A stretch of 64,000 nt of DNA from an uncultured Rhizobiaceae bacterium (lineage in GTDB: Bacteria > Pseudomonadota > Alphaproteobacteria > Rhizobiales > Aestuariivirgaceae): the NCBI GenBank assembly GCA_964568825.1, contig CAZMSA010000001.1:1945-65944 (forward strand), read 5' to 3'. The position numbers and the translations under genes were made by a program. Each line of letters starts with the position of its first letter. Within the stretch, counting starts at the first letter, position 1. Below are positions 7,059-26,364 of this stretch, one piece after another. The notes below the pieces were generated by a model. That model saw nothing but the letters and a program-made list of their open reading frames with translations. It did no database searches and was not told the origin of the DNA.

Positions 7059-7160
7059 TCCCTCCGCGATGGCCGACGACGCAGTCGTCCCGGGTGCGGC
7101 CTACAAACTATCCATTTCCGCGTGATGACCAGTCAATGCCTGCCGTTTTGTGCCGCGCTC

Positions 7161-8333: not shown

Positions 8334-9113
8334 ATGGATCTGGGCATCACGGGGCGCAAGGCGATTGTGTGCGCATCAAGCCGCGGGCTCGGCAAGGCCT
8401 GCGCCATGGCGCTGGCTGTCGACGGTGTCGAGGTAGTGGTCAACGGCCGCGATGTGAGCGTCCTCGAAGCGACAGCCGAAGAGATCAGGAAAGCCACCGG
8501 GGCAAAGGTCATGGCGGTTGCCGCCGATGTCTCCACGCATGAGGGCCAGGCAGCGATTCTGACCGCCTGCCCCGATCCCGACATCCTCATCAACAACAAT
8601 GGCGGGCCGCCTTTCCGCGACTTTCGCGCCCTCGACCGCGCCATGATCCTCGACGGCGTGGTGCAGAACATGGTCACCCCCATCGAACTCATCCAGAAGG
8701 TGTTGCCGGCGATGATCGAGCGCCGCTTCGGGCGCATCGTCAACATCACCTCGGCGTCGGTGAAGATGCCCATCCTCGGCCTCGATCTGTCATCGGGCGC
8801 GCGCGCCGGCCTCACCGCCTTCCTCGCCGGACCCGCGCGCGATATCGCCCACCACAACGTCACCATCAACGGCCTGTTGCCCGGCATGTTCGACACCGAC
8901 CGGTTGAAGAACTCCACCCGCGCCCAGGCCGAAATGAAGGGCGTCAGTGTCGATGAGATGGCCGATACCCGCGCCTCCACCGTCCCGGCCCGCCGTTTCG
9001 GCCATCCCGACGAACTGGGCAAACTGTGCGCTTTCCTGTGCTCGGACGCGGCCGGCTACATAACCGGGCAGAATTTCCTGATCGACGGCGGCCTGTTCAA
9101 CTCAGCCATTTAG
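8334..9113 (+). CDS. SDR family oxidoreductase
   Basis: GRKAIVCASSRGLGKA is a cofactor loop and NITSASV plus a downstream catalytic region are present. ATG 8334 is preceded by GAGGAAAGGA. Confidence 0.8.
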   Translation: MDLGITGRKAIVCASSRGLGKACAMALAVDGVEVVVNGRDVSVLEATAEEIRKATGAKVMAVAADVSTHEGQAAILTACPDPDILINNNGGPPFRDFRALDRAMILDGVVQNMVTPIELIQKVLPAMIERRFGRIVNITSASVKMPILGLDLSSGARAGLTAFLAGPARDIAHHNVTINGLLPGMFDTDRLKNSTRAQAEMKGVSVDEMADTRASTVPARRFGHPDELGKLCAFLCSDAAGYITGQNFLIDGGLFNSAI

Positions 9114-9130
9114 GGGCGGGCCGCTCCCCT

Positions 9131-10021: not shown

Positions 10022-10076
10022 CGATTGCTGCTCCCTTGGCCGTTGCCCGCCCATCATAAGCGCGCGGCCGCTACCC

Positions 10077-11423
10077 TCACAACCATTCGTCCCTCACTCC
10101 GAAGCCGGCATAGGCGGCCTTGAGATAGTGGCGCCGCAGGCCGGGCAGCGGAAAGCGCGGTGGAGCCTGCCGCACGATGCCCGGAATGGCTTCGGCCGCG
10201 CCGTCGGCGCCCGCCATCAGGTCGGCAATCAGCCGCCCGGCATAGCTTGCCATGGCGACGCCGTTGCCGTGCCAGGCAAGCGTCGCATAGCCACCGGGTA
10301 TCTGATCGATCTCGCCGACGAACGGCACCAGCCGCCGTGCCAGGCACACAAAGCCCGCCCACGCCCGTTCAGTCTCGACCGCCGCCCAGGCCGGAAACAT
10401 CGTTTCGAACGTCGCCCTGAGCGCCCGGGTGATGGCATCGAGACCCGACGGCGAAGCATCGGTGCCGCCACGCCCGCCGAACATGAAGCGATTGTCCGGT
10501 AGCAGGCGGAAATAGTGTAAGAGGTCGCGGGTGTCATAGGCCATGTCATGGCTGGTCCAGCCTTGCGCCAGACGCTCTTCCTGGCTCAAGGGACGGGTGA
10601 CGATGATCCGTGACAACGTCGGCAGCAGCCGCCCGCCCACCCATGCCGGCACCTCCTCGTCGCTATAGCCGTTGGTGGCCACAAGCACCTTTTTCGCCCA
10701 CACCTCACCGCCCGGCGTCGTCAGGACATTGAGTCCGGCTTCGTGCCGCCAGCCGGTGACCGGCGAATTTCCATGCACGCTGACCCCAAGGTCGATCACC
10801 ACCCGCGCCAGCCCCAGCACATAGCGCAGCGGATGCAGGCCGAAGCCGACCGGGCTCCACAAGCCGCCATGGAACTGCGGCCCCGCCAGCCCCCGCGCCT
10901 CAAGCTCGGAACGATCCGCCAGCATCATGTCGAGGCCGAAAGTCGCTGCCATGAAGTCGCGCTCTGCCTTGAGGCCCTGCATGCGGTTGGCGCGGTGGGC
11001 CAGCGCCCAGTCACCCGCCCCCGAACGCTCGGCATCGATGCCGTGCTCGCTCAGCAGCGCCCCTACATGCTCCACCGATTCAGCCTGCGCGGTGTAGAAC
11101 CGGCGCGCTTCCTCCAGCCCGTAGCGGGCGATCATGTCGCCATAGGAGAGTTTTGAGGAACCCGCGCAGCAAAAGCCTCCGTTGCGCCCCGAGGCGCCCC
11201 ATCCGGGACGCGCCGCATCCAGCACCAGCGGCTTGATGCCGTGCGCGGTTGCCAGCCGCAGCGCCGCGTTGAGCCCGGCAAAGCCCGCGCCGATGATCGC
11301 GACATCCGCCGTCGCCGACCCGTCGAGACGCGGACATTCCCGCTGCAGCGGCGGCGCGGTGGCCTGCCAGTGACTGTCGACGGGGGTGGAGAAATCGAAG
11401 GCTGAAGGATGATAGAGGCGCAT
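10077..11423 (-). CDS. FAD-dependent oxidoreductase (DAO family, gamma-glutamylputrescine-oxidase-like)
   Basis: The dinucleotide-binding motif DVAIIGAGFAGLNAALRLA is present and the length is about 450 aa. The start is at MRLYHPS. Confidence 0.75.
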   Translation of the reverse strand: MRLYHPSAFDFSTPVDSHWQATAPPLQRECPRLDGSATADVAIIGAGFAGLNAALRLATAHGIKPLVLDAARPGWGASGRNGGFCCAGSSKLSYGDMIARYGLEEARRFYTAQAESVEHVGALLSEHGIDAERSGAGDWALAHRANRMQGLKAERDFMAATFGLDMMLADRSELEARGLAGPQFHGGLWSPVGFGLHPLRYVLGLARVVIDLGVSVHGNSPVTGWRHEAGLNVLTTPGGEVWAKKVLVATNGYSDEEVPAWVGGRLLPTLSRIIVTRPLSQEERLAQGWTSHDMAYDTRDLLHYFRLLPDNRFMFGGRGGTDASPSGLDAITRALRATFETMFPAWAAVETERAWAGFVCLARRLVPFVGEIDQIPGGYATLAWHGNGVAMASYAGRLIADLMAGADGAAEAIPGIVRQAPPRFPLPGLRRHYLKAAYAGFGVRDEWL

Positions 11424-12850: not shown

Positions 12851-13222
12851 ATGAAGATGCAAGCCGCCTTTTCCAGTTCCGCCCCCCATCTCGTCCCGGC
12901 GCGCAAGTACGACCACGACCTCAAGGACTGGGGCATCATCCCCACCATGATCGAGGGACACTCGCGCACCTCCGGCGTCATGCTGTCGTGCAATGCCGAT
13001 GGCTCCTCCGAGGTAGGCATCTGGGTGTGCACGCCAGGCTTCTGGGACTGCCACGTGACATCCGACGAGTTCTGCCATTTCCTTGAGGGCCACTGCACCT
13101 ACACCCACGAGACGGGCGAGGTGATCGAGATCGTCCCCGACACCATCGCGTTCTTTCCCAAGGACTGGAAGGGCACTTGCCGGGTGCATGAAACGGTGCG
13201 CAAGGTCTACATGATCCGTTGA
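12851..13222 (+). CDS. small cupin domain protein (DUF861/cupin_3-like)
   Basis: This 123-aa protein has the cupin core GIWVCTPGFW...DEFCHFLEGHCTYTHETGEVIEI. Its start abuts the GT1 stop. Confidence 0.65.
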   Translation: MKMQAAFSSSAPHLVPARKYDHDLKDWGIIPTMIEGHSRTSGVMLSCNADGSSEVGIWVCTPGFWDCHVTSDEFCHFLEGHCTYTHETGEVIEIVPDTIAFFPKDWKGTCRVHETVRKVYMIR

Positions 13223-13255
13223 GCGGAAATTTATGTCAGCAAAGGACTTGCTCCC

Positions 13256-14155
13256 ATGTCTTCATCCGATGTCGCGTGGCCGAAGAAGACCCGCGAGTTC
13301 CAGAACCATCATATGGATTCAACCTTCTGGAACGATTTTCCGTTCCGCGATGACGACATCATCATCGCCACCTACGGCAAATCCGGCACCACCTGGCTGC
13401 AGCAGATCGTCGCCCAGTTGATCTTCGACGGCGCCGAGGGATTGCCGGTGGCCGAGATGTCGCCGTGGCTCGACCTCAGGGTGCCGCCCAAGGAGGTAAA
13501 GCTGCCGGCGGTGGAGGCGCAAGACCACAGGCGTTTCCTCAAGACCCACCTGCCGGTCGATGCGCTGGTGTTCTCGCCCAAGGCCAAATACATCTACATC
13601 GCCCGCGACGGCCGCGACGTGATCTGGTCCATGTACAACCACCACGCCACCGCCAACGACATGTGGTACGACGCGCTCAACAACACGCCCGGCCGCATCG
13701 GCCCGCCGATCGAGCCGCCGCCTGCCTCTATCCGCCAGTATTTCAACGAATGGCTCGAAGGCAACGGCTATCCGTTCTGGCCGTTCTGGGAAAACATCAG
13801 GTCGTGGTGGGAGATCCGCGATCTGCCGAATGTCAAGCTGCTGCACTTCGCCGACCTCAAGGCCGACATGCCGGGCCAGATCCGCCGCCTCGCCGAATTT
13901 CTTGACATCCCCGTCCACGAAACAACATGGCCGGCCATCCTGGAGCATTGCAGCTTTACTTACATGAAGGCCCATGCCAGCGAAAGCGTGCCCTTGGGCG
14001 GCGCCTTGTGGGAGGGCGGCGCCGAAACCTTCATGCACAAGGGCACCAACGGGCGCTGGCGCGACACCCTCAACGCCGACGAGATCGCCGCCTACAAGAA
14101 AACGGCGCTCGCCGAACTGGGCCCCGAATGCGCCCGCTGGCTGGCTGGAGCTTGA
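13256..14155 (+). CDS. PAPS-dependent sulfotransferase (eukaryote-like Sulfotransfer_1 type)
   Basis: The 5'-PSB motif YGKSGTTWLQQIV, the 3'-PB region IARDGRDVIWSMYNH and the C-terminal HKGTNGRWRDTL motif are present. Confidence 0.8.
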   Translation: MSSSDVAWPKKTREFQNHHMDSTFWNDFPFRDDDIIIATYGKSGTTWLQQIVAQLIFDGAEGLPVAEMSPWLDLRVPPKEVKLPAVEAQDHRRFLKTHLPVDALVFSPKAKYIYIARDGRDVIWSMYNHHATANDMWYDALNNTPGRIGPPIEPPPASIRQYFNEWLEGNGYPFWPFWENIRSWWEIRDLPNVKLLHFADLKADMPGQIRRLAEFLDIPVHETTWPAILEHCSFTYMKAHASESVPLGGALWEGGAETFMHKGTNGRWRDTLNADEIAAYKKTALAELGPECARWLAGA

Positions 14156-14257
14156 TGCCGAAAAGTGGGTGCCACTTTTCGGATAACATCATGCTCTGTC
14201 TTATTGGAATCGATCAGGATGATTCTGGATCGACTCGACCCAGAATTATCCTGATCC
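14155..14257 (+). repeat. about 105-bp structured intergenic repeat, copy A (inverted partner at 45294-45399)
   Basis: It contains hairpin 1, CGAAAAGTGG-gtg-CCACTTTTCG. This is followed by the conserved core GGATAACATCATGCTCTGTCTTATTGGAATCGATCAGG and a long second hairpin, GATCAGGATGATTCTGG...CCAGAATTATCCTGATC. Confidence 0.85.
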
Positions 14258-14270
14258 AACGGCGCTGCGG

Positions 14271-14727
14271 TCAAGGCCTGAGGATCACCCAGCCCTTTTC
14301 GGCCAGTTCCATCAGCCTCACGGCGCCCGACGGCACCACGACGGCGTTGGAGACCAGCGGCGGCACCTTGCCTTCCTTCTTGGCCATGCCCTGAAGGGTG
14401 TTGTTGCAGGCATTGAACACCACATTGGGCATCCGACTTGGCAAAGCCCAGGACCCGCTCCTTCACCGGCGAGGTGTCCTCACGCAGCATGTGCAGGCCC
14501 TGATTGAAGGCCACCACCTGGATCTGCACCGCTTCTCCGAGTTCCGCGTAGTGGCGCGACACGTTGGCCGCCACATTGAGCACGGTGTTCATCTTCTGCG
14601 GGTCCTTGTCGGAGATCTGCAACGCCAGGCGATGGACCTCACCCGCCATCGCCGGGCTCACGGCCGCCATTACCACCCACAGCGCCACCAGCAGCGCACC
14701 CGGAAAAATCCTCGCCCATCCGCTCAC
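14271..14727 (-). pseudogene. DsrE/DsrF-like family protein, interrupted by a +1 frameshift near 14433
   Basis: A GTG start at 14727 follows GGAAGGGAG, and there is a signal peptide. The family-like sequence runs up to ...RVLGFAKS. The natural continuation, MPNVVFNACNNTLQGMAKKEGKVPPLVSNAVVVPSGAVRLMELAEKGWVILRP-stop (14271), is in another frame. The in-frame read-through becomes an Arg/Gly-rich nonsense tail. Confidence 0.65.
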
Positions 14728-14833
14728 GTCGTTCTCCCTTCCTGTTACCCAGCCTTGCGCAACGGCGCATCGCCGCCGCCGGATGCCGGTTGCATGCAAG
14801 ATTTATATATATTGAAACTGCTCGTAAGGACTG

Positions 14834-14866
14834 AAAAAGCCGCGCCCGGCCGGCCAACCGGGCGCA
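14834..14866 (-). terminator. rho-independent terminator closing the caspase operon
   Basis: On the minus strand the stem GCGCCCGG-(8 nt)-CCGGGCGC is followed by GGCTTTTTC. It lies 11 nt after the OmpA-like stop codon. Confidence 0.75.
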
Positions 14867-14876
14867 TGATCTAGGG

Positions 14877-15791
14877 CTATTCGGTCTTGTACTCTACCCG
14901 CCGCGACATGGCGTCGAGTTGGTCCTGGGTGTAGCGCGAGGGATCGTCGGCCTGGAACGGCTCTTCTTCGCCGCGCCCGACGACATCGACCTTGCCGGCA
15001 TAATTATTGGCCAGCAGGTAATCGCGCACCGCCGCCGCCCGGCGGATCGACAGTTGCATGTTGTAAGCGGCCGGCCCCTTGGAATCGGTGTGGCCGATGA
15101 GCACCACATGGTCATAGCCGCCGGCCTGCAGATAGCTCAGGATTTCCTTGGCGGCGGCGATGCCGTCGGGCGTCAGGTCGGCGGAATCGAAGGCAAAGCG
15201 GATCGGCACCGGCACCGCCTCGGCGGTAAAGTTGCGGAATTTCGGCGACGCCAGTCCCGACGGCACGCCGCGGGTGGAGCGGCTGGCGATGAAGGCGGGC
15301 GCCAACGCCCGGGCCTCGATGGCGCGCTTGTAGGCGTGGCGCTCCATGTCGGCCGGTGGCTTGGTGGGATTGGCCGTTTCGTCGCGCATGTCGTCGAGTG
15401 TCGTCTCGTAGGCCCTGAAGGCCTTGGCATAGTCCTTTGCGTCGAAGTAGCTGTCGCCCAGGGTGATCATCACCTGCCACGGCTTGGCCAGCGCCGCCAC
15501 CGCCTCGATCTCGGCCGACGACGGGTTCGGGTTGGCGGTGACCAGATGGCGAAAGGCGCTGAGCGCCAGCACCCGCGCCAGGTTGCCGCGATAGATCGCA
15601 TCGCAACTGCTGTCGCTGCGGGCCTCGGCCAAGAGGCCGGAATACTTCGCCACCGCACCCGATTGCATCGCCTGCCGCGCTGCCGTGTCGATCGCCTTGC
15701 AATCGGCCCGGGCGGGCTGGGCGACAGCGAGTGCCGCCAGCAGCAACGCCGCCGGCAGCAACCCTATTGCAACACGCAGCTTCATCGTCAC
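14877..15791 (-). CDS. exported OmpA_C-domain (peptidoglycan-binding) protein with a helical/TPR-like N-domain
   Basis: It has a signal peptide LLPAALLLAALAVAQPARA and the OmpA_C motif VVLIGHTDSKGPAAYNMQLSIRRAAAVRDYL. A GTG at 15791 overlaps the upstream stop (GTGA); the alternative start is ATG at 15785. Confidence 0.85.
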   Translation of the reverse strand: MTMKLRVAIGLLPAALLLAALAVAQPARADCKAIDTAARQAMQSGAVAKYSGLLAEARSDSSCDAIYRGNLARVLALSAFRHLVTANPNPSSAEIEAVAALAKPWQVMITLGDSYFDAKDYAKAFRAYETTLDDMRDETANPTKPPADMERHAYKRAIEARALAPAFIASRSTRGVPSGLASPKFRNFTAEAVPVPIRFAFDSADLTPDGIAAAKEILSYLQAGGYDHVVLIGHTDSKGPAAYNMQLSIRRAAAVRDYLLANNYAGKVDVVGRGEEEPFQADDPSRYTQDQLDAMSRRVEYKTE

Positions 15792-18130
15792 TGCCCCGTC
15801 ACGGTCAGCTTGATGGCCACGCGCGCCACCCCGGAGTGCACCGGCACATCGGAGACCTTGGTGACCGGCGTGGCCTTTACCTGCTTGGCTTCCACCGAGA
15901 TCGCCCGGGTGACGAAGGAGTTGTAGTTGCCCAGGTCGGTAAAGTTCTTCTCCTTGAAGTGATGCACGATGGTGTCAACGGCGCTCGCCTTGGCATTGCA
16001 CAGGGCGATGACCGTTTCCGTGCCGATGTCCTTGAGGCGGAACTGGAACGGCGCATCGGGCCGTGGATACTCGAACGCCTGGTTGGCCTTGATCAAGGTG
16101 TCGTTCTCGAACTTGTTCGGGAACAGCACCGTGCCGGTTCCCTTGTCGTCCACATCGACCAGCGTGAGATGGCAATCGGTGTCGGACTGCACGATGAACA
16201 CCGGCAGTTCGTTCTGGTGGTAGGTGGTCTTGGTGGAGAACAACGACAGGTGGATATCGCCGTCGATCTTGGTATCGGCCGTGTTCACCTTGGCGATGGT
16301 GATGGGCTGATCGTACTGGTTGAACAGCGATTCGCTGTCGGTCAGTTCCGAGATCAGCTTGGGGAACTGAGCCTCGAAGTTGTCACGCGGCACCACCGAC
16401 TGCTGCAACCGGTCGAGCAGGTTGCGGGCATCGCCGCCGCGCTCGCCGGCCACCTTCTCGAAATCATCGAGCTTCATGCCGAAATCGGCGGCGGCGAGAT
16501 TGAGATCGACGTCCTTTTCATACTTGTTCGACAAGGCGTTGATCATCTCGATGCCGTCGAGCTTCAGCGAAGGATCGAGCCCGGCGCGCCGCATGGCATC
16601 ATCGAAGCGCGCGGTGTCGTCGGCGAGGTACTTGTCAACCACCTGGTGCGGCGGATACAGCGCCTCGACCGCCTTGCGGACGTCCCTGGGGAAGTTGACG
16701 TCGTGGATTACATGCTCGCGGATGTCGTCATGCGCCCGGCGGAAGCCGTGGTCGTGGCAACCGAAGCACGAGATGGCGTTGGCCACCGCCAGGTCCTTGC
16801 GGTCCTTGTCGCGAACGATACTGGTCGGGCCCTTGTCGAGCCGCTCACCGCTGGCCTTGTTGAGGTAATAGCCGTTGAGGCCGTTGGGCAGCGTGAACAC
16901 CGTCTCGCCGCCCTGTTCCTGGAAGCCGTCCTCGCCGCCCGGGCCCAACGGGTGTTCGAACAGGCTCTGCACCCCGACGTTGCCGGAGAAGTCATAGGAC
17001 GTCCAGAACACGCCGGTGGAAATGGTGTGGCGCTCGATCAGCCGGTTGTTCTCGCTGACCAGCGACTTCTGGAAGCCGGAACGCACGGCGACGAAATTCC
17101 TGATATCCTTCTCGACATCGACGCCGATCTGCTGCTGCAGCGCCTGGAAGGTCTTCGGCAGCTTCAGGAGGTCGTAATATAGAGGCGGCCGCGAGGCGGT
17201 GAAGGCGAACCAGTCGCCGCGCACATACGGCACCTTGGTATTGAGCTGCGTGGTGACGAAATCGTACTGCCTGGCGTCCGGCTTGACCGCGTACGGGTAG
17301 ACCTGGGCGATGCGGTCCCAGTCCTCGGGCGTCCATTTGACGTCGTCGAGGTTGAAACGGATGATCGTCTGCGCCGGATCGATGGTCTCCAGCTTCACCA
17401 GGTCGGAATTGCGGCTGAGGCTGTTCAGCAGCTTGATCGTGCCCTGGCGATAAACCTTCATCTCCTCGTTGCTGGAGCAGGCATTGTAGAGATTGGTGAG
17501 CAAGATGTAGCGGGTGCCGGCGACGCGGTAATCCTGCAGATGGTTGAGGTCGGCGCTCACCATGTTCAGCACATCATCATTGCTGATGAAGGTGTGGCTG
17601 GCGCACGCCGCGGCTCGTTGATCGCCCAGCGAGGATATCCAGTTGCGGATGGCGGCGACCTCGGATTGGGTCGGCGGATCGATGGATGTGTTGTGATCCT
17701 GATAGTAGTCGTAGGGCATGTTCTTGTTGAGAATCGTCTGCACCAGCTTGGAGCCGTCCGGGTTGCCGGGGATCACCAGGCTGGGGTCCCTGGCCATCTG
17801 GTCCATGTACAAGACGTTGCCGAAGCCGTGCGCCGGCTTCACACGGCCGTCCAGCATGCCGAACTGATGGCAGCGCGCGCAGTTCCTGTCGAGCGCCTGA
17901 TAGGCGGCGGCCTCGATGGGGTTGGTGGGCTTGGGGATCTTGGCGGCGGCGGCCTCGACGTCCTTTTCGCTGGGCGACAGCAACAAGGCATCGGCGCTCG
18001 CTTGCAGCGTTGTGTCCGGCGTCGGCGAAAGCAGGCTGTTATCCTGCGTCTGCCCGGCCCAGCCGGCGTGACTGGCGACCATCGTCAGACCGATGCCCAA
18101 GGCAATCGCGGTAAAGGTTACTTGTCTCAT
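15788..18130 (-). CDS. exported dihaem c-type cytochrome-like protein with a C-terminal DUF4384-like module
   Basis: It has a signal peptide and two CxxCH motifs, CARCH (17867-17881) and CFGCH (16754-16768). IPGNPDGSKLVQ resembles Planctomycete-type cytochrome c domains. The C-terminus reads DCHLTLVDVDDKGTGTVLFPNKF...GTETVIALC. Confidence 0.7.
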   Translation of the reverse strand: MRQVTFTAIALGIGLTMVASHAGWAGQTQDNSLLSPTPDTTLQASADALLLSPSEKDVEAAAAKIPKPTNPIEAAAYQALDRNCARCHQFGMLDGRVKPAHGFGNVLYMDQMARDPSLVIPGNPDGSKLVQTILNKNMPYDYYQDHNTSIDPPTQSEVAAIRNWISSLGDQRAAACASHTFISNDDVLNMVSADLNHLQDYRVAGTRYILLTNLYNACSSNEEMKVYRQGTIKLLNSLSRNSDLVKLETIDPAQTIIRFNLDDVKWTPEDWDRIAQVYPYAVKPDARQYDFVTTQLNTKVPYVRGDWFAFTASRPPLYYDLLKLPKTFQALQQQIGVDVEKDIRNFVAVRSGFQKSLVSENNRLIERHTISTGVFWTSYDFSGNVGVQSLFEHPLGPGGEDGFQEQGGETVFTLPNGLNGYYLNKASGERLDKGPTSIVRDKDRKDLAVANAISCFGCHDHGFRRAHDDIREHVIHDVNFPRDVRKAVEALYPPHQVVDKYLADDTARFDDAMRRAGLDPSLKLDGIEMINALSNKYEKDVDLNLAAADFGMKLDDFEKVAGERGGDARNLLDRLQQSVVPRDNFEAQFPKLISELTDSESLFNQYDQPITIAKVNTADTKIDGDIHLSLFSTKTTYHQNELPVFIVQSDTDCHLTLVDVDDKGTGTVLFPNKFENDTLIKANQAFEYPRPDAPFQFRLKDIGTETVIALCNAKASAVDTIVHHFKEKNFTDLGNYNSFVTRAISVEAKQVKATPVTKVSDVPVHSGVARVAIKLTVTGQ

Positions 18131-18195
18131 GGCAATAGCCTTCCTGTCGGTTTGCTGGGCGTTCTTATGGGGGCGGTGGGCGTTTTCATGGGTTA

Positions 18196-19692
18196 TTACC
18201 TCGGTTTGATTTCATAGCGCAGGGTGGCGACCGACCAATCCGTGGCTGTCGTATTGTCGTTTGGATTGGCGTCGGCCACCGGGTTGCCGAGTGCGGCCGC
18301 GATCTGCGGCAGGAAGGTCGTTACGGCCTCCTGGCGCGGGATCACTTCGATGGCGCGCGTCCCCACCGCCCTTTGCCAGTCGACTTTGTGGCGTGCGACA
18401 ATGGCGATTATCTCGCCCGACGTGGCCGACGTCGCGTTGAAGCGCAAGCCGTAATAGTCGTCGGGGACCATGAGTTCTGCATTCGCTCTCACCTCGCCAT
18501 CGGCGTTCTTGCGGCGGCTGAACTGGTTGGGAAACAGCTGGGTCAGCTGCCCATCGTCGCTCAGGTCGAGCAGGACCAGATAGCCGTCATGCTTGGAGGC
18601 GATGTGGAAGCGGATATCCTTGTCGCCGACGTGCAGCGGACTTGGCGGCGTCTGGGTCAGCACCACGTCGGTCTTGTTGCCCTCGGTGAGATAATCCTTG
18701 ACCGTATCGAGCGACAGCTTGTGCGAGTCAACGGTCGTCTTGGCTTCGACATAGGCCTGATGTCCGAAGGCCGATGGCGGCTCCAGCCGTGGCGTCAGGC
18801 CCATCTGGCAGACATCGGCGCGGCTCGAGCAATAGGCCTTGGAGCCGTCGGTGAGATAGGCGAGCAACTCCGGGTTGGAGATCTGGCCGTTGTGGTTGGC
18901 ATCGGCCTTGCCGTCCCGCAACGCTTCCAGGTAAAGGCTCGTGAAGATGCCGCCGTAGCCGGGACGCAACGGGTCGAGCATGGCCGTCTGGCTGGCCGAG
19001 ACGGCCTCCCACACGGCAAGGTCGAGCCCGGCGGGAAAGTCATGCAGGAAGGCGCCTTCCTGCTTTTGCTGGGCCACCTTGGCCTCGACCACGATGGCCC
19101 GGCTGGCTGCCGCGACGGGCGGTGCGCGGAACAGCACGTTCTGCTGATCGTTGGTGGCGATGCGAGTGACCCGGCCGGAAAACCCGGCATCAAAGACCAG
19201 CGTCACGTGCCGGCCGGTCAGCTTCTTCAGGGCAACGCTGATCTCGTCGCCGAGCACCAGCCCGGAGATGGCGAGCTTGCCGCCGTCTTCCGACATCTTC
19301 GCATCGTAGGGCACCAGCCCTTCGGCCAGTCCATCGGCCTGCGTGCCCCTGGTATCGGGGGTGAAATAGCCGTTGCCGGCGAAATACAGATAGACCTTGT
19401 CACCCGGCTTGCTGCCGGCGACCAGCCAGCTTGCCAGTCCGTCGCGGATGGCTGCACCCGTTGCCGCCTCGTTCGTCAGTACACGGATATCGCTGGCGGC
19501 AAAGCCGAGCTTGCCCCGCAGCAGCGACCGGATCGCCGCCACATCGTTGACGGCAGGGGTTCCCTGTTTCACGTTGAGGCGGGCATCCGCATAGCTGTCG
19601 ATACCGATCAGCAACGCCCGATCGCTTGCAAGCGCACCGCTTGCGGCACCAGCCATGGCAACGAGCACAACAGCGGTGGCCAGGCGGTGCAT
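18196..19692 (-). CDS. exported caspase-like (Peptidase_C14) pseudo-protease with an EF-hand loop and a DUF4384-like C-terminus
   Basis: The fold entry reads RALLIGIDSYAD. The catalytic His position reads FAGNGY (Asn, codon 19372-19374) and the Cys position reads FDAGFSG (Gly, codon 19183-19185). The EF-hand loop is DANHNGQISNPE and the C-terminus reads DGYLVLLDLSDDGQLTQLFPNQF. Confidence 0.8.
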   Translation of the reverse strand: MHRLATAVVLVAMAGAASGALASDRALLIGIDSYADARLNVKQGTPAVNDVAAIRSLLRGKLGFAASDIRVLTNEAATGAAIRDGLASWLVAGSKPGDKVYLYFAGNGYFTPDTRGTQADGLAEGLVPYDAKMSEDGGKLAISGLVLGDEISVALKKLTGRHVTLVFDAGFSGRVTRIATNDQQNVLFRAPPVAAASRAIVVEAKVAQQKQEGAFLHDFPAGLDLAVWEAVSASQTAMLDPLRPGYGGIFTSLYLEALRDGKADANHNGQISNPELLAYLTDGSKAYCSSRADVCQMGLTPRLEPPSAFGHQAYVEAKTTVDSHKLSLDTVKDYLTEGNKTDVVLTQTPPSPLHVGDKDIRFHIASKHDGYLVLLDLSDDGQLTQLFPNQFSRRKNADGEVRANAELMVPDDYYGLRFNATSATSGEIIAIVARHKVDWQRAVGTRAIEVIPRQEAVTTFLPQIAAALGNPVADANPNDNTTATDWSVATLRYEIKPR

Positions 19693-19696
19693 CGGC

Positions 19697-21304
19697 TCAT
19701 CCTCCCGTGCCGGTGTAGATGGAAGCCACGCCGAACTGGAACGGCTGCGAGCCTAGCGCCGCTTCGACGACGCCGCGCAGGCCCACCGCGCGATCCGCAC
19801 TCGACATCTGCTTGAGCGCCGCCTGAAAAGCCGGCAACGGCTTGTCGGTGAAGATCGCCACCAGGTGCTCTGCCCCGAAAGGCGGTTTTTCCGGTGTGAA
19901 CTTCCACTCCGTCGTCTTTTTTCTCCAGTCGACGTTCACTTCATCAGGCTCCACAAAAAACTCCACGCGTCCATTGGGCGCCAGGTTGAACAACGTCATG
20001 TAGGGACGTTCGGCACCCTTGAACAACACGTCGATCTCCTCACCCGGCTTGTAGCGCTGGTTACCTGAACGCAGAATGAACTCGCCCGGTGCGCCGGTTG
20101 CGTGATTGCCCAGCCACTTGAGCGTCGCCCACTTGGCGACGATCGGGATCATGGCATTGGCATCGACATGCTCGGCCACCACCCCGCCGACCACTTGTTC
20201 GACGCTGCCGGTCTTCACGTTCCAGATCAGGTCGGCCTTTCCGGATTGATCAGTGAGCGTCACATCCGGCAACGCCGCCAGCGAAGCGCCGTCGCCGCCG
20301 ATCACCTTGATGGCCAAGGCGTCAGCATTCTTGGGCACCACCTTGGGCCCGGTGGGTTCCGGCGCCGAGGCGATCAGCGCTTCGCCCCGCGTCCTGATCG
20401 GCAGCACCTGCGGGTTCTGCTGGCCCTGCACCAGTTGGAATATTTTCGGCACCAGGTAGCTCACCAGTTCTTCCTGGGTAATCTCGCCATCGTGATTGCG
20501 GTCGGCGCCGCCTTCGATGGCGCGCGCGAACGAATAGCTGAGCGCCCCGCGCATCTGGTTGCCGATCTTCACCTCGGGGATCGTGTGAGCATCATCAGTC
20601 GCCCCCACGAAGGTCAGGTGCTTGAAGTCGGCTGGCGTCGCATTGGCCACCGTCGGTGGCGGCAGCTTGAGCTGATCGTCGGTGATCTTGGGTATGGTCA
20701 AGAAGCGATAGTGGACGCCGTTGTCGGCACCGATTGAGCGATACATGTGCCCAGAGTGGCACGAATCGGCAATGAAGATGGTTTTTATTCCCTTGTCGTC
20801 CGCCAGCTTCAGCCAGGCATTCATTTCGTAGCCGACAACGCGCTCCTTGCTCTGTTCGCCATGCGGAGCGAAACCGCCGAGGATGAAGTCCTCGTTGTAT
20901 TTTTCGCCGTTGGCGTCGGGGCCGCCGGGCTTGGGCTCGCGGCTGCCGTGACCGGCATAGGAAAACACCAGCGTATCGCCGGGGTGCGAACGAGCGACCA
21001 GCTTGGCCCAGTCCTCGCCGATTTGCGCCTTGTTGGCATCGCCATTGACCAGCAAGGTGATGTCCTTGCCGCCAGCCTTGCCGAGCGCCTGGGCAATGTC
21101 GCGGGCATCGTTGACGGCGCCGTTGAGCTGATTTTGCGGGCCCAGGTTAACGTATTTGTCGATGCCGATGACCAGTCCCCTGATGGCCGCTGCTGCGGGA
21201 TGGCCTCCCGGCAAGGCCAGCGCCAGGCCCATGGCTGCCACAAGCAAGGCCCCTCCCCACGCCCTCCCGGCCATCGACCGAATTAGAGACATGATCGCGC
21301 GCAT
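19697..21304 (-). CDS. exported caspase-like protease (Peptidase_C14, orthocaspase type) with an EF-hand loop and a DUF4384-like C-terminus
   Basis: ATG 21304 follows the SD GGGAGG, and there is a signal peptide GGALLVAAMGLALALPG. The catalytic His is in SYAGHGS (20948-20950) and the catalytic Cys in ADSCHSG (20759-20761). The EF-hand loop is DRNHDGEITQEE (20468-20503) and the C-terminus reads PYMTLFNLAPNGRVEFF. Confidence 0.85.
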   Translation of the reverse strand: MRAIMSLIRSMAGRAWGGALLVAAMGLALALPGGHPAAAAIRGLVIGIDKYVNLGPQNQLNGAVNDARDIAQALGKAGGKDITLLVNGDANKAQIGEDWAKLVARSHPGDTLVFSYAGHGSREPKPGGPDANGEKYNEDFILGGFAPHGEQSKERVVGYEMNAWLKLADDKGIKTIFIADSCHSGHMYRSIGADNGVHYRFLTIPKITDDQLKLPPPTVANATPADFKHLTFVGATDDAHTIPEVKIGNQMRGALSYSFARAIEGGADRNHDGEITQEELVSYLVPKIFQLVQGQQNPQVLPIRTRGEALIASAPEPTGPKVVPKNADALAIKVIGGDGASLAALPDVTLTDQSGKADLIWNVKTGSVEQVVGGVVAEHVDANAMIPIVAKWATLKWLGNHATGAPGEFILRSGNQRYKPGEEIDVLFKGAERPYMTLFNLAPNGRVEFFVEPDEVNVDWRKKTTEWKFTPEKPPFGAEHLVAIFTDKPLPAFQAALKQMSSADRAVGLRGVVEAALGSQPFQFGVASIYTGTGG

Positions 21305-21309
21305 CGGAA

Positions 21310-21356
21310 CCTCCCTGGTCAGCGCCGTGCATTGGCGCACCCTCACGCCAGGGAGG
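21310..21356 (-). promoter_or_regulatory. 5' leader hairpin sequestering the caspase gene Shine-Dalgarno sequence
   Basis: The minus-strand RNA reads CCUCCCUGG-CGUGAGGGU-GCGCC-AAUGCAC-GGCGC-UGA-CCAGGGAGG-UUCCG-AUG. A 9-bp outer stem pairs an anti-SD with the SD, and there is a 5-bp inner stem. Confidence 0.55.
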
Positions 21357-21364
21357 AAGTCTAT

Positions 21365-21393
21365 GCAATGAAGGCGGCTCGCGCAATGAAGGC
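21365..21393 (-). promoter_or_regulatory. 11-nt direct repeat (GCAATGAAGGC x2, 18-nt register) upstream of the caspase leader
   Basis: Exact copies lie at 21365-21375 and 21383-21393, immediately 5' of the leader hairpin on the transcribed strand. Confidence 0.4.
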
Positions 21394-21491
21394 CCGACGC
21401 TAGGCAGGCGCTCCCTGCCAGGGTCAAAACGTCAGTTGTTATAAAGGCTTGCCGCAGCAACCTGAATCGGAAACTGAAACCCGGATGCGGC

Positions 21492-21779
21492 CTACATTAT
21501 CCTCAGCGGTCGCGAGAAGAAATCCGGTTGCGCCCTGGACTTGGTGCGCTGTTCCATCGACAGCTTGGCCAGCACGCGCCTGAGGCGGCTGTTCTCGCTC
21601 TGCAGATGCTGCAGGATATCGAGCGGTACCGCGACATTGCCGTCATGCTCCTTGAGCCAGGTCGTGAACACCACCCGGTTGACACCGGTACGTTGTAACG
21701 CCTCCTCCACCGTGTGGCCCCTGGCGATGAGCCGGTTGGTTTCGGTCAGTCTGGCAATAAGATCATTGTTGTCCGACAT
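21492..21779 (-). CDS. orphan IS3-family OrfA-like HTH/leucine-zipper protein (no OrfB, no terminal repeats)
   Basis: The HTH-like region reads LIARGHTVEEALQRTGVNRVVFTTWLKEH. It is followed by the heptad-like LQHLQSENSRLRRVLAKLSMEQ, typical of IS3/IS911 OrfA. Only 187 bp separate it from the next gene. Confidence 0.55.
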   Translation of the reverse strand: MSDNNDLIARLTETNRLIARGHTVEEALQRTGVNRVVFTTWLKEHDGNVAVPLDILQHLQSENSRLRRVLAKLSMEQRTKSRAQPDFFSRPLRIM

Positions 21780-21850
21780 GGCAGACCTCATTTGGCTGTT
21801 CGGCGACGCAAATCCCGCTGCCGCCGATGGCGCGGGCAGTCAAGTTGCAG

Positions 21851-22105
21851 TCATTGGCATTGGGCCCGAACCGCATCGAGGCTGGACACCACATCGGTGC
21901 CCATGTAGCGGGCGGCCGACGGGTTGAGACCATCCAGGCGATGACACAATTCGGCATAGCGCGCGTGTCCCGAATAGCTGACGAAGGCCAGCACATTGCA
22001 GGCAACGAACAAGCCGATGGCGATTCTCCCGAGATTGCGCGCGGTTTCCTCGCGCTCTTCGGCCATGCGCTTCCAGGTAAATTGCAGGTTGCTTGCCGTG
22101 TTCAT
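21851..22105 (-). CDS. small hypothetical single-pass membrane protein
   Basis: This 84-aa ORF starts at ATG 22105 and has one hydrophobic helix, IAIGLFVACNVLAFV. I recognise no family. Confidence 0.35.
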   Translation of the reverse strand: MNTASNLQFTWKRMAEEREETARNLGRIAIGLFVACNVLAFVSYSGHARYAELCHRLDGLNPSAARYMGTDVVSSLDAVRAQCQ

Positions 22106-22338
22106 GTTTTTGTCTCCCCAAAAAACAATCAGTGGGTAACCTTGCTCGGTCATCTCTTGTTTAGCATGATGCTTGGCTCAACACTCTCTTAACCAGAAAT
22201 CGCGGTTGAGGAGCGGTTAACCTCGACGACAGGATTTAGGCAAAATTCGTCGAAAAATTTGCCGCCAATCAGCAGTGTCGCCAGGTGCTTCAGCAACCGC
22301 GCAAGCTGTTCACCTCGAAAACTGCCCGTTTTTTGCCG

Positions 22339-22352
22339 TTGACGCAGATCAA
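22339..22352 (+). promoter_or_regulatory. FNR/FixK-type box TTGACGCAGATCAA upstream of the three-membrane-protein operon
   Basis: It matches TTGA-N6-TCAA, is centred about 85 nt upstream of ATG 22431 and lies in a 277-bp comparatively AT-rich intergenic region. Confidence 0.5.
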
Positions 22353-22430
22353 GGCGCCGCGAGTGCAAATCAATATTGATCGAGATTACCCGGTCACTGG
22401 CGTGATCCGGTCTGCAAGGAGGTAGCAGTC

Positions 22431-22940
22431 ATGAACGTGAAATCTGTTCGAAGCCCCGCTCCGGTTCTCACCGGCAATGCGTGGAGCGCCGGCATAGTGG
22501 CCGGGCTCGCCGGCGGGGCCATCGAGGTGGCATGGATCGCCCTTTACCAGCAGATTGCCGGGGCCGATGGCGCAGCCGTAGCGCGCGGCGTCACCCAGTC
22601 CGTATTGCCCGGCATGGTCTCGGCGCCGGCTGCCGTGCCGCTGGGGCTCGCCATCCACATGGGCCTGGCGATAGCCCTCGGCATTGTCATCGCCGTGGCC
22701 CTGCCCCGCCTGTTGCCGCGTCTTGTCGGCACGATAATGGAGCCGGCAGCCGTGGTCGCCACGCTCATCGGCGTCTGGGCGGTCAATTTCTTCGTGGTTC
22801 TGCCCGCCATCAACCCCGCCTTCGTGACGCTGGTCCCTTTGAGCGCCAGTCTCACCTCAAAGGTGCTCTTCGGGTTCGCGGCGGCATTCGTATTGCGCGC
22901 GGCTCGCCGGCATCGTGCCACCAGTTCGCATGAACTTTGA
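22431..22940 (+). CDS. hypothetical integral membrane protein (about 4 TM), operon gene 1
   Basis: A strong SD, AAGGAGG, lies 8 nt upstream. Four hydrophobic helices are visible. I recognise no family. Confidence 0.6.
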   Translation: MNVKSVRSPAPVLTGNAWSAGIVAGLAGGAIEVAWIALYQQIAGADGAAVARGVTQSVLPGMVSAPAAVPLGLAIHMGLAIALGIVIAVALPRLLPRLVGTIMEPAAVVATLIGVWAVNFFVVLPAINPAFVTLVPLSASLTSKVLFGFAAAFVLRAARRHRATSSHEL

Positions 22941-22951
22941 GGAGGCAACCC

Positions 22952-23419
22952 ATGTCCAAGGAATTGATTTTGATGATGCATCCCACCTTCGGTGTGCTCG
23001 CTTTGATTGCTGCAGTATGGACGTTCGTGGCAACGCTCAATGCCAGTGACGCCAATGTCGGGCGCATCCGCACTGCCGGCGTGCTGACGGCGGTGCTGGT
23101 GTGGCTTGCCTACATCATCGGCGGTTATTTCTATGTGCTCTACTACGGGGCCGACAAGGCCATCATCCTTCAGGGCCCGTGGAAATATTCACACTCGTTC
23201 TTCATGGAGACCAAGGAACACGCGTTCTTCATGCTGCTGATGCTGGCCACCTTTCTGGCGATTGCGGTGCAAGCCAATATCGCCCGGCTCGCCGCGGCGC
23301 GCAGGCTGGTGCTCTACACCTCCGGCCTGGTGGTTCTGATGATATTCGCCATGGAAGGTGCCGGCGCCATGATCAGCATGGGCGTCAAGGTCGCCCTGTT
23401 GGCCAAGCAGGCATCTTAA
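22952..23419 (+). CDS. hypothetical integral membrane protein (about 4 TM, conserved-looking His residues), operon gene 2
   Basis: The SD GAGGAGG overlaps the stop codon of gene 1. Helix-flanking His residues occur in MMHPTFG, YSHSFF and TKEHAFF. Confidence 0.6.
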   Translation: MSKELILMMHPTFGVLALIAAVWTFVATLNASDANVGRIRTAGVLTAVLVWLAYIIGGYFYVLYYGADKAIILQGPWKYSHSFFMETKEHAFFMLLMLATFLAIAVQANIARLAAARRLVLYTSGLVVLMIFAMEGAGAMISMGVKVALLAKQAS

Positions 23420-23833: not shown

Positions 23834-24220
23834 CTACTTGCGATATTTCGCGGCCAGAGTGTCGACGAAGGCCATCAGGTCATCGAGGTCCTTCAGCGTC
23901 AGCTCGAACGGCACGATCACCGGCACGGTCTGCTGCACCTGCGGCAGTTCGCGAATGCGCGTGAAATTGGGATGCGGCCGGCGGTCGTAGAAATTGACGA
24001 AGCGCTTGCGCCAATCCTTGATGTCGAGGCTCACCATGGCCTTGAACGATGGCGACATGCCGATGCCCATGTTGTCCTCGCCTGGCAGCACGTGACAGCG
24101 CGCGCAATCGGTTTGCGCCAATTTCCGCCCGTGACCGGCATCGCCGGCAGCAAGCGCTGGCCCGCCCGCCACGACGAGGATGCCGGCAGTCATCACAGCT
24201 CGTCGAACCCCGATGGTCAT
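23834..24220 (-). CDS. small exported c-type cytochrome-like protein
   Basis: It has a signal peptide MTAGILVVAGGPALAAG and a single CARCH haem-binding motif. Confidence 0.65.
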   Translation of the reverse strand: MTIGVRRAVMTAGILVVAGGPALAAGDAGHGRKLAQTDCARCHVLPGEDNMGIGMSPSFKAMVSLDIKDWRKRFVNFYDRRPHPNFTRIRELPQVQQTVPVIVPFELTLKDLDDLMAFVDTLAAKYRK

Positions 24221-24273: not shown

Positions 24274-24298
24274 CGCGTCAGCGCGTCAGCTCGTCAGC
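24274..24298. repeat. tandem octamer GCGTCAGC GCGTCAGC TCGTCAGC
   Basis: Read directly. It abuts the stop codon of the TMADH-like gene, in the 77-nt spacer before the cytochrome gene. Confidence 0.7.
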
Positions 24299-26364
24299 TA
24301 CGCCAGTTGCGCCAGTTCGCGGCGGAACGGCAGAGCATCGCCGATGTCGGGCTCATCGAGTTCGCGCGCATAGCGGTGCCCGGCATAGGTGGCCCAGGCA
24401 ATGGGCGCCGGGGCAAGCGCATCGCCGAACAGTTTTACACCCTTCAGCCCCGCCGCCGCCCATTCGTCCTTTCGCGCCACGAGATCGCGGAAAAGCCCGT
24501 CCTTGCCCAGCCGCGCCGTCACCAGGCAGACGCTGTTGCATGAAATATCCTCGCGGCGGCCGGAATAGGTGCAGGCGATCTCCACCCCGCCGGCCCTGAT
24601 GGCGGTGAGGCCGCGGGCTATGCGGATGTCGATGCCCAGATCGATGAGCCGCGCCTGGATGAAGCCCTGTTCCAACGTATTGGCGGTCCAGTCGGAAACC
24701 TGGGTGGCCGGCGTGATGAGCGTTACCCGATTGCCCGCCACCGCCAGCACCTCGGCGACAACGCCGCCCATGTAATAGTGGTCATCGTCATAGACCACCA
24801 CATGGCCTTCGGGTCTGGCACCCGCCATGAGATCGTCGGGCGTCAAGCAGGCCATGCCAGCGGCCACGGCGATGGGGGCGGTGTTGTAGCGCCCTACCCC
24901 GTCGCGACGCCACGTCGAGCCGGTGGCCAGCCCCGCATGATCGACCCCAAGCTCCAGCACGTCGGGTGCGGTCATCGTCGAATCGAGAAACACCTCCACA
25001 TTGGCCATGCGGGCGATCTGCTGGGCGCGGTAGTGGCGCACCCGGCCCCAGGCGGAAAGCCCCAGCAGGCGGCACTCGCGCGCCACTCGCCCGCCCAGTT
25101 CCATCCCCGCCTCGGCGAGCAAGACATGATAGCCGCGATGGCCCAGCGCCCGCGCCGCCTCCAGCCCGGCCGGCCCCGCCCCGACGATCAGCACCTTTTC
25201 GCTTGCCCCCTTCGTCGCGATGCGCTCGGGATGCCAGCCCTTCCGCCATTCTTCCATGAAGGTCGGGTTCTGGGTGCAGCGCGATAGCGCCATGGTCATG
25301 TCGCCGGTGACGCACATATTGCAGCCGATGCACTCGCGAATGTCGTCGACCTCGCCGTTGTCGATCTTTTTCGGCAGGAACGGATCGGCGATGGAGGGCC
25401 GCGCCGCGCCGATGAGATCGAGCACCCCGGATTTCACCTGCCGTACCATTTCATCGGGCGAGGTGAACCGCCCCACCGCCACCACCGGCTTGGAGGTGAG
25501 CGCCTTCATGCCACGAACCAGGCTTTCCATGTGGCCTTCCGGCTTGAAGCGCGAGGTGCCGGAGCACTCTTCCCACGAGCCATGGGCAAAATCCCACAGA
25601 TCGGGCAGTTCGGCCAACATCGCCACCACGTCGCGGATTTCCGCATTGGTGATGCCACCGTCGCCGAGCGCCTCGTCGGCGAGGATGCGGACCGGCACCG
25701 CACAGGTGTCGCCGACCGCTTCCTTGGTGTCGATGATGAGTTCCTTCAGCAATCGTGCCCGGTTCTCGAGGCTGCCACCGTATTCGTCGCTGCGCTGGTT
25801 GATGCGCCGCGACAGGAAATGCTGGATGGTCCCGAACCCGTGGGCGCCGTAGACATAGATCAGGTCGAAGCCGCATTTTTTTGCTCGCACAGCGGCGCTG
25901 CGATGCCAACGCCGCAAGTCGGCGATGTCGGATTTGTCCATGGCACGGGCCTGCACCGGATCGTTGGAAAAAGTCAGGATGGGCAGGTTCATGGGGCCCA
26001 TCGGCGTCTCGCGCGAATACAGATTGGGGCCGTTCATGCCGTTGTAGCACAGCTCGATGCCGGCCAGTGCCCCGCCTTCGTGGATAGCCTCTGCGATGCG
26101 CGTCAGCATCGGCAGGTCATCATCATCCCACAGCCGCAATTCGATGAACGGGGTGATCTCCGAGGTGTGGTGGATCTCCACCTGCTCGGTGCACAAGACG
26201 CCCCATCCGCCCTCTGCCTTGACCCGACGCATTTCAGCATTGGCGGATGGATCGCGATAGCCGGCGCCGTTGCAGTGCGGCACCTGGTAGAAGCGGTTCT
26301 TGACTGTCACTGGCCCGATCTTCACCGGCTCGAACAAGATATCGTAGCGTGGATCACGCGCCAT
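24298..26364 (-). CDS. trimethylamine/dimethylamine/histamine dehydrogenase-family iron-sulfur flavoprotein
   Basis: The N-terminus ARDPRYDILFEPVKIGPVTVKNRFYQVPHCNG includes the Cys that carries 6-S-cysteinyl-FMN in TMADH. A 4Fe-4S motif CIGCNMCV and a dinucleotide fold VLIVGAGPAGLEAA are present. Confidence 0.85.
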   Translation of the reverse strand: MARDPRYDILFEPVKIGPVTVKNRFYQVPHCNGAGYRDPSANAEMRRVKAEGGWGVLCTEQVEIHHTSEITPFIELRLWDDDDLPMLTRIAEAIHEGGALAGIELCYNGMNGPNLYSRETPMGPMNLPILTFSNDPVQARAMDKSDIADLRRWHRSAAVRAKKCGFDLIYVYGAHGFGTIQHFLSRRINQRSDEYGGSLENRARLLKELIIDTKEAVGDTCAVPVRILADEALGDGGITNAEIRDVVAMLAELPDLWDFAHGSWEECSGTSRFKPEGHMESLVRGMKALTSKPVVAVGRFTSPDEMVRQVKSGVLDLIGAARPSIADPFLPKKIDNGEVDDIRECIGCNMCVTGDMTMALSRCTQNPTFMEEWRKGWHPERIATKGASEKVLIVGAGPAGLEAARALGHRGYHVLLAEAGMELGGRVARECRLLGLSAWGRVRHYRAQQIARMANVEVFLDSTMTAPDVLELGVDHAGLATGSTWRRDGVGRYNTAPIAVAAGMACLTPDDLMAGARPEGHVVVYDDDHYYMGGVVAEVLAVAGNRVTLITPATQVSDWTANTLEQGFIQARLIDLGIDIRIARGLTAIRAGGVEIACTYSGRREDISCNSVCLVTARLGKDGLFRDLVARKDEWAAAGLKGVKLFGDALAPAPIAWATYAGHRYARELDEPDIGDALPFRRELAQLA

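Follow-up and report, generated by a model that had tools for sequence, protein, structure and literature searches.

To our knowledge, almost no bacterial caspase homologue has a known role, and many of these homologues are found in Rhizobiales. The bacterial caspase roles that are known are cytoplasmic, namely gasdermin activation, cyclic oligonucleotide-based antiphage signaling (CBASS) and type III CRISPR. We have analyzed a window of 64,000 nucleotides (nt) from an uncultured Rhizobiaceae bacterium (GTDB family Aestuariivirgaceae; GenBank assembly GCA_964568825.1, contig CAZMSA010000001.1, positions 1,945 to 65,944 of the forward strand). In this window, four genes at 14877-21304 on the minus strand encode, head to tail, a caspase-like protease (C14a), a paralogue with both catalytic residues replaced (C14b), a two-haem protein (CYT) and an OmpA-like protein. 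We propose that the four products make up a wall-tethered, haem-sensing protease module which turns a redox or ligand signal into the cleavage of envelope proteins, a tentative reading to which we assign a probability of about 0.4.

Among the described systems, orthocaspases and pseudo-orthocaspases resemble the caspase pair in that C14a has the p20-type fold, the catalytic dyad and the DxCHSG motif, and C14b is a paralogue that has lost the dyad. Pseudo-orthocaspases occur above all in Rhizobiales, and some of them have DUF4384 after a trypsin-pseudo-caspase (Klemencic et al. 2019, PMC6426788). However, the published pseudo-variants are mainly YS, YA, FS, QC and HA, and those with DUF4384 carry trypsin (PMC6426788), while C14b has the pair N/G and its orthologues vary. 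Both caspases of the window additionally have predicted signal peptides, and an operon link to a haem protein and an OmpA-like protein is undescribed there. Craspase of type III-E systems (Csx29, Csx30, Csx31, RpoE) likewise combines a caspase-like protease with a DUF4384 protein, and its extracytoplasmic function (ECF) sigma factor has a counterpart in the Afipia-type sister clusters described below. DUF4384 is the C-terminal domain of some Csx30 proteins and is often fused to proteases; the caspase-like Csx29 has Csx30 as its substrate, and Csx30 controls or partners an ECF sigma factor (bioRxiv 10.1101/2022.08.17.504292). However, Craspase is a cytoplasmic, RNA-guided TPR-CHAT system, whereas the operon products are predicted to be exported, CRISPR is missing and the ECF pair is absent from the window; the likeness is one of functional analogy.

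Periplasmic proteases linked to an anti-sigma/ECF pair or to a FecR protein, as in the sister clusters, are found in DegS/RseA and Prc/FecR, but these are S1 or S41 enzymes as opposed to C14 or S8 here, and sigma and anti-sigma genes are absent from the window cluster. Foldseek also aligns C14a over ~480 columns with the caspase-Ig3 region of MALT1, which similarly has a caspase domain followed by a beta-sandwich. Identity is nevertheless 10-12% with a large root-mean-square deviation, and C14a is bacterial, predicted to be exported and has an extra middle domain. CYT has its N-terminal CxxCH...PGxPxxS...MP domain in common with PSCyt1 ("Planctomycete cytochrome c") proteins and weakly resembles FoxE, but its core is not the DUF1549/DUF1553-type module usual on PSCyt domains. 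The parts are thus from known superfamilies and pseudo-orthocaspases of Rhizobiales are published, while the system as such matches no characterised one. Our literature search found no paper assigning the cluster a function, which agrees with the novelty claimed when the stretch was first read from its letters (hereafter the sequence-only reading). Neither the operon nor the CYT core nor any pairing of exported caspases and cytochromes turned up in it, and a broad search for caspases and cytochromes gave only papers on eukaryotic apoptosis.

The genes, as taken from the list of open reading frames (ORFs), and the signal that ends them are the following:

19697-21304, minus strand: C14a, 535 amino acids (aa), start MRAIMSL
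18196-19692, minus strand: C14b, 498 aa
15788-18130, minus strand: CYT, 780 aa
14877-15791, minus strand: OmpA-like gene, 304 aa
14832-14866, minus strand: rho-independent terminator, a hairpin and T run at the 3' end of the operon

The layout and junctions given in the sequence-only reading are borne out by these coordinates. C14a and C14b are separated by a 4-nt gap, and C14b and CYT by a 65-nt gap that holds a GGAAGG Shine-Dalgarno sequence. At the third junction, CAGTGACGATG (GTGA), the CYT stop codon TGA overlaps the GTG start of the OmpA-like gene, for which an alternative ATG start lies two codons downstream. C14a can also be read as a longer ORF with a TTG start that extends to 21460. 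The terminator suggested earlier is strong, with a hairpin (14866-14841) of 11 bp including 8 GC pairs followed by TTTTT. A single operon is the best explanation for the four genes, because the gaps and the overlap are tight, the terminator stands at the end and the spacing recurs in other genomes.

This recurrence was followed in one genome per species, which gave 346 CYT loci, essentially all in Hyphomicrobiales and including Afipia, Bradyrhizobium, Labrys, Methyloceanibacter, Microvirga, Methylocella and Bauldia; details of synteny are from the best 80 loci plus L001. The order C14a-C14b-CYT-OmpA was found in at least 12 loci (L002, L003, L006, L014, L016, L027, L030, L036, L047, L070, L077 and L081), while L080 (Labrys okinawensis DSM 18385, NZ_CP178864.1, about 1.259-1.277 Mb) has an insertion in the cluster and L071 (Bradyrhizobium sp. 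LjRoot220) and L022 are rearranged. Taxa with this order include Parvibaculaceae, Methyloligellaceae, Hyphomicrobiaceae, Bauldia, Labrys and others, and the four-gene set is conserved across soil and water Alphaproteobacteria. As the order occurs in five of the seven CYT subclades, the arrangement is probably ancestral. The overlap between CYT and OmpA is 4 nt in six loci and 1 nt in two, and the gaps between C14a and C14b in other genomes are mostly -4 to +14. The synteny in related genomes on which the sequence-only reading depended is therefore present in many of them, together with conserved 4-nt overlaps. It could be argued that the genes are neighbours by descent only and have no joint function, as many of the loci are from related Hyphomicrobiales. 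This is essentially excluded by the conserved start/stop overlaps, by an order shared between five subclades that are ~50% identical to each other, and by the independent re-association of CYT with different caspase architectures, S8 proteases and different peptidoglycan binders. The predicted exported products of the operon almost certainly act as a functional unit.

The residues on which the assignment of the two caspases depends are located as follows:

20948-20950, minus strand: C14a His119, within SYAGHGS
20759-20761, minus strand: C14a Cys182, within ADSCHSG
20468-20503, minus strand: C14a EF-hand loop, residues 268-279
19372-19374, minus strand: C14b Asn107, which replaces His, in YFAGNGY
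19183-19185, minus strand: C14b Gly170, which replaces Cys, in DAGFSG

C14a matched Peptidase_C14 (PF00656) in Pfam with 41.4 bits against a cut-off of 21.4 (E=1.7e-10). The intact His/Cys dyad read from its sequence is real and is retained in 27 of 27 orthologues. In its AlphaFold2 model (predicted local distance difference test score, pLDDT, 84; predicted template modelling score, pTM, 0.83), beta-rich domains come after a caspase/haemoglobinase domain, and Foldseek matched the model to GSU0716 (5.6e-12) as well as to plant and yeast metacaspases (metacaspases 4 and 9 among the matches) and the MALT1 caspase-Ig3. A sequence search retrieved metacaspase-1 (7e-06). C14a is thus predicted, from sequence and model, to be an exported and active orthocaspase-like protease of Peptidase_C14 clan CD. 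It probably cleaves after Arg or Lys, by analogy with metacaspases, since its DxCHSG motif is of the metacaspase type. An identical 535-aa product is present in public collections, where proteins of the family are merely named "caspase family protein" and "DUF4384 domain-containing protein".

The caspase domain of C14b was recognised by NCBIfam (6e-08) and PADLOC (1.4e-18) models. Its description as a catalytically dead paralogue holds for C14b itself, in which both residues are replaced, but does not extend to the whole family. The Cys is lost in 12 of 14 orthologues, while the other two (L077 and L022) retain both His and Cys, and three more retain His. Because of these retained residues, C14b is best described as a paralogue which has decayed into a pseudo-enzyme, i.e., a predicted exported pseudo-orthocaspase. 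C14a and C14b each have an EF-hand loop (DRNHDGEITQEE and DANHNGQISNPE) that fits DxNxDGxIxxxE and is conserved in orthologues. The loop is modelled as a helix-loop-helix (helices 254-266 and 277-291), with a Pfam EF-hand score under the cut-off. The presence of this putative Ca2+ site in both caspases supports the proposed module.

A second pseudo-caspase family of ~630 aa (about 570-740), also predicted to be exported, follows CYT in Methyloceanibacter-type clusters, where it takes the place of both C14b and OmpA. These proteins have a PG_binding-like N-terminus and a caspase domain with the Cys replaced (LLE[ST][ED][YF]G), as exemplified by L046:10222-12132 and 16 similar loci (e.g., L015, L017, L025, L028, L034 and L035). 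Judged by sequence, this lineage arose independently of C14b, and pairs of active and dead caspases would then have more than one origin.

The two-haem protein CYT has the following features:

17867-17881, minus strand: CARCH haem site, residues 84-88
16754-16768, minus strand: CFGCH haem site, residues 455-459, inside the core domain
16331-17683, minus strand: unnamed core domain, residues ~150-600

Both CxxCH sites reported for the 780-aa protein were confirmed, and together with Met138 they are invariant in 26 homologues (47-84% identity). Met138 is likely the sixth ligand of haem 1. CYT is predicted to be a c-type haem protein with attached haem, and covalent attachment of c-type haem requires export (cytochrome c maturation). 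The N-terminus is a PSCyt1-like cytochrome c domain. CYT itself scored under every cut-off of the curated cytochrome c families in Pfam, weak sub-threshold matches to Cytochrome_CBB3 were found in 25 of the 26 family members, and half of the wider CYT relatives pass the PSCyt1 threshold. For the core domain, the Pfam scan of the 26 members gave no match. The AlphaFold2 model of CYT (pTM 0.78) has a small helical cytochrome domain, a core at ~150-600 mostly with pLDDT >90 and a C-terminal beta-sandwich. Foldseek found no match to this model in the Protein Data Bank (PDB) at E<=0.001, and the weak hits listed all fall on macroglobulin, Ig or CBM-like sandwiches, i.e., on the C-terminal beta-sandwich. 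A PDB sequence search with the CYT profile returned only FoxE (E=0.13). We rejected CYT as a di-haem cytochrome c peroxidase/MauG, as the CCP_MauG match had E=0.078 with 14.1 bits against a cut-off of 25.6 and the PDB held no fold match. The close homologues of CYT number in the hundreds, and all are either without a name or called "DUF4384 domain-containing protein".

When CYT residues 170-600 were used as query, the core alone was found in 3,377 representative clusters at E<=1e-3 and in 1,426 at E<=1e-30. Given this number and the absent Pfam model, the sequences define the CYT core as a large unnamed domain family. The longer relatives have architectures such as Pkinase, one transmembrane (TM) helix, PSCyt1, core and FGE-sulfatase; Pkinase, TM, PSCyt1 and core; DnaJ, TM, PSCyt1, core and TPR; and PSCyt1, core and TPR. 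The domain after the core is WD40 in 9 and DUF4384 in 8 of 50 sampled relatives. Where PSCyt1 and core occur as a unit, the CxxCH sites are always spaced by ~360-370 aa and are on the far side of the TM helix (e.g., proteins P0169, P0191, P0194, P0258, P0188 and P0166, relatives of the part encoded at 16331-17623). A kinase atlas also places DUF4384 and FGE-sulfatase on Ser/Thr kinases. These domain orders suggest that the CYT core is an extracytoplasmic input (sensor) domain on receptor kinases. We prefer a sensor over an enzyme for CYT mainly because the core lies outside the TM helix on receptor Ser/Thr kinases.

The sequence-only reading further proposed that the first three proteins end in a shared DUF4384-like module. 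DUF4384 corresponds to PF14326, for which the Pfam cut-off is 27 bits, and the modules were placed as follows:

18394-18621, minus strand: DUF4384 of C14b, residues 358-433, 47.1 bits, E=2.6e-12
15998-16198, minus strand: DUF4384 of CYT, residues 645-711, 49.9 bits, E=3.3e-13
19838-20053, minus strand: DUF4384-like beta-sandwich of C14a, residues 418-489, sub-threshold

The proposal holds for C14b and CYT, which score above the cut-off, but less firmly for C14a, which reaches 16.7 bits (E=0.008) and of whose relatives 1 of 120 reaches PF14326. In hhalign comparisons, the modules of C14b and CYT are clear homologues (probability 97%, E=6e-11). The C14a module aligned with that of CYT with a probability of 88% (E=3e-6) and weakly with that of C14b (27%). 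By analogy with Csx30, DUF4384 may serve as a docking unit. Overall, the profile searches support the assignments to C14, DUF4384 and OmpA.

The fourth gene product carries one annotated domain:

14940-15200, minus strand: OmpA_C domain of the OmpA-like protein, residues 198-284, with a GHTD...LSxRRA motif

The match to OmpA_C (PF00691) has 60.9 bits against a cut-off of 27.2 (E=1.6e-16), the translation has GHTDSKG...NMQLSIRRA, and NCBIfam models of OmpA-type anchors match as well. The protein was taken for a peptidoglycan binder from its letters, and by these profiles it is a peptidoglycan-binding anchor, predicted to be exported. Sec-type signal peptides had likewise been suggested for all four proteins, and signal-peptide-like N-termini were indeed found. 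Each combines a hydrophobic core of 12 residues (mean Kyte-Doolittle 2.2-2.7) with a basic n-region and a cleavage site that resembles AxA. From these N-termini, we infer that all four proteins are exported. The N-terminal half of the OmpA-like protein is TPR-like by a weak Pfam match (TPR_2, E=0.0011). This fits an alternative in which the cluster is a wall-anchored protease-adaptor system with a housekeeping role, like NlpI-Prc or LbcA-CtpA. In such a system the TPR/OmpA part presents peptidoglycan-associated proteins, and the haem protein is a substrate or an accessory. Peptidoglycan binding in every cluster type (OmpA_C, PG_binding_1 lipoproteins and PG_binding-like caspase N-termini) and the interchangeable protease type, C14 or S8, agree with this. 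However, the alternative leaves the constancy of the two-haem CYT beside a variable protease without explanation, no conserved peptidoglycan hydrolase genes are nearby, and we consider it quite unlikely.

The partners of CYT vary between lineages. In 50 of the 58 loci with complete flanks, a protease gene lies no more than four genes away from CYT (31 C14 and 19 S8). Crude gene calling makes this number a minimum, and OmpA or PG_binding_1 partners are common across the loci. In the Afipia/Bradyrhizobiaceae-like subclade (L032, L033, L060, L075 and others; about 4100-10200), the order is ECF sigma factor, anti-sigma factor, S8 subtilase, short OmpA and CYT. In these clusters the sigma factor is of the PRK12515 type, the Asp/His/Ser triad of the S8 protease is intact and a TIGR03809-family protein comes after CYT. 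Afipia birgiae and A. massiliensis are cultured carriers of this S8/ECF variant. In the sister clade of the window, a divergent gene combines C14 and PG_binding_1, and a FecR-domain protein follows CYT. Most lineages also have a membrane-anchored di-haem cytochrome (~340 aa), often together with cytochrome c', upstream of the cluster. A tblastn search of the window found none of the 342-aa cytochrome, cytochrome c', S8, ECF, anti-sigma, FecR and 630-aa pseudo-caspase partners.

In the haem-sensing protease module that we propose, CYT would be the input, with the two c-type haems in PSCyt1 and core reporting the redox state or a small ligand. C14a would be the output, as a Ca2+-binding orthocaspase of the metacaspase type, and the catalytically dead C14b may be its regulator or scaffold. 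The OmpA-like protein would fix the assembly to the cell wall, and the DUF4384 sandwiches of CYT, C14b and, in divergent form, C14a might hold the parts together or present a substrate. In response to a haem signal, at least one envelope protein would thereby be cleaved irreversibly. In the sister lineage, the pair of CYT and OmpA would work with the S8 subtilase beside the ECF sigma/anti-sigma pair. The data show the domains and catalytic residues, the order of the genes, their conservation and the partners that recur, whereas assembly into a complex, a sensing role, the way the signal runs and the substrates are what we infer from the gene set. That haem or Ca2+ gates the protease, as the sequence-only reading hypothesised, is likewise presumed, and the comparative data agree with an exported protease module linked to haem or Ca2+. 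A stricter version, in which the c-type haem protein directly gates a periplasmic caspase-fold protease via DUF4384 contacts and the active/dead pair, with the redox or ligand state of CYT switching C14a on, and in which the core is a new family of haem sensors, we regard as very unlikely.

Several observations weigh against the module. The S8 partner protease is without DUF4384, and docking through this domain can therefore not be general. Some clusters have only a pseudo-caspase beside CYT, so proteolysis may not be the conserved output. The signal peptides were judged heuristically, from charge, hydropathy and the AxA site by eye. The window is also without a sigma/anti-sigma pair or any other obvious signalling output. 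The remaining points concern CYT and favour an alternative in which it is a periplasmic redox enzyme fed by c-type cytochromes, with the caspases and OmpA serving maturation, turnover or anchoring. An invariant Met ligand is typical of electron-transfer haems and not of ligand-binding haems, and Met138 at haem 1 is of this type. Besides the two invariant haem sites, the core has the motifs NNRLIERH, WTSYDF, HDGGE and LPNG and a dense set of invariant polar residues, which suggest an active site and fit a redox enzyme too. Most other lineages have the di-haem cytochrome and cytochrome c' immediately upstream, and 7 of the 26 CYT members have weak sub-threshold similarity to CCP_MauG. On the other side, the PSCyt1-core module occurs with a receptor-like topology in fusions with Ser/Thr kinases, DnaJ, TPR and WD40, CYT is linked to ECF sigma/anti-sigma and FecR genes, the upstream cytochromes are missing from the window cluster, and no fold or family match to known redox enzymes was found. 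A redox enzyme is thus possible but somewhat unlikely.

Caspase-fold proteases are effectors in several bacterial immune systems, and the operon might accordingly be read as a suicide or defence system in which a stress or phage cue would cause the exported caspase to destroy the integrity of the envelope. The occurrence of DUF4384 in the type III-E substrate Csx30 is consistent with this, and the nearest NCBIfam model is that of an EACC1-associated caspase, far under the cut-off. However, the PADLOC hits were limited to generic caspase-domain and MotB/OmpA-domain models, with none for CYT, and an NTPase, a nucleic-acid sensor and a toxin partner are all absent. The cluster is also collinear and vertically conserved in the closest relatives and not a variable island, and its GC content is the same as that of the surrounding DNA. 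A defence role therefore appears highly improbable.

Two further features lie upstream of C14a:

21358-21390, minus strand: direct repeat TTCATTGC-N10-TTCATTGC followed by TAGACT, a probable promoter or operator
21310-21356, minus strand: leader hairpin CCUCCCUGG / CCAGGGAGG, which pairs with the C14a Shine-Dalgarno sequence

The direct repeat and TAGACT are kept upstream of the C14a orthologue in L002 and L003, and are likely the promoter or an operator of the operon. The structured leader described in the sequence-only reading does fold, with arms at 21356-21348 and 21318-21310 that mask the Shine-Dalgarno sequence and an energy of -26.6 kcal/mol, but it barely beats shuffled sequences (z=-1.92 for 61 nt and z=-0.08 for 106 nt, i.e., marginal). 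Its 5' arm has diverged without compensation in L002 and L003 (84% and 73% DNA identity). Since the hairpin is not conserved and is scarcely more stable than shuffles, we rejected it as a regulator. An Rfam scan of 14000-23000 at E<=1 gave a chance match to an internal ribosome entry site as its sole hit, and no known riboswitch or leader.

The surrounding genes on both sides of the operon are as follows:

21492-21791, minus strand: 99-aa ORF just upstream of the operon, weak HTH_Tnp_1 match (E=1.2e-4)
21851-22153, minus strand: 100-aa ORF upstream of the operon, with a single hydrophobic segment
22431-23762, plus strand: three small membrane-protein ORFs without a family match, between the operon and the cytochrome and Old Yellow Enzyme (OYE) genes
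23834-24220, minus strand: 128-aa class-I cytochrome c (CARCH), adjoining the OYE-like gene
24298-26364, minus strand: 688-aa OYE-like FMN/FAD oxidoreductase
14092-14799, minus strand: 235-aa ORF without a family match
12851-14155, plus strand: cupin (EutQ-like) and sulfotransferase genes downstream of the operon

The 99-aa and 100-aa ORFs are kept only in the nearest relatives (L002, L003 and L082). A recent insertion of an insertion sequence breaking the cluster was considered for the 99-aa ORF and rejected, because the ORF is collinear and kept in L002 and L003. The L002 counterpart of the 235-aa ORF changes frame at residue 122. Either this ORF fuses two frames, as a frameshift or pseudogene, or it was called too long. 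The cupin and sulfotransferase genes, which are collinear in L002 and L003, probably have no connection with the cluster.

The cluster gives exported caspases a fixed genetic context, in which an active/dead pair is combined with a two-haem partner and a wall anchor, and this context opens experiments in cultured Labrys, Afipia or Bradyrhizobium. The haem domain family is shared with receptor Ser/Thr kinases and could be a widespread class of periplasmic sensors. If gating of the caspase by haem were shown, the system could become categorically new, and would represent a prokaryotic coupling of cytochrome to caspase in the bacterial class ancestral to mitochondria. Collectively, if the route from sensing to proteolysis proposed here is true, it would be a new route of envelope signal transduction and would bear on the idea of alphaproteobacterial roots of the apoptotic machinery.

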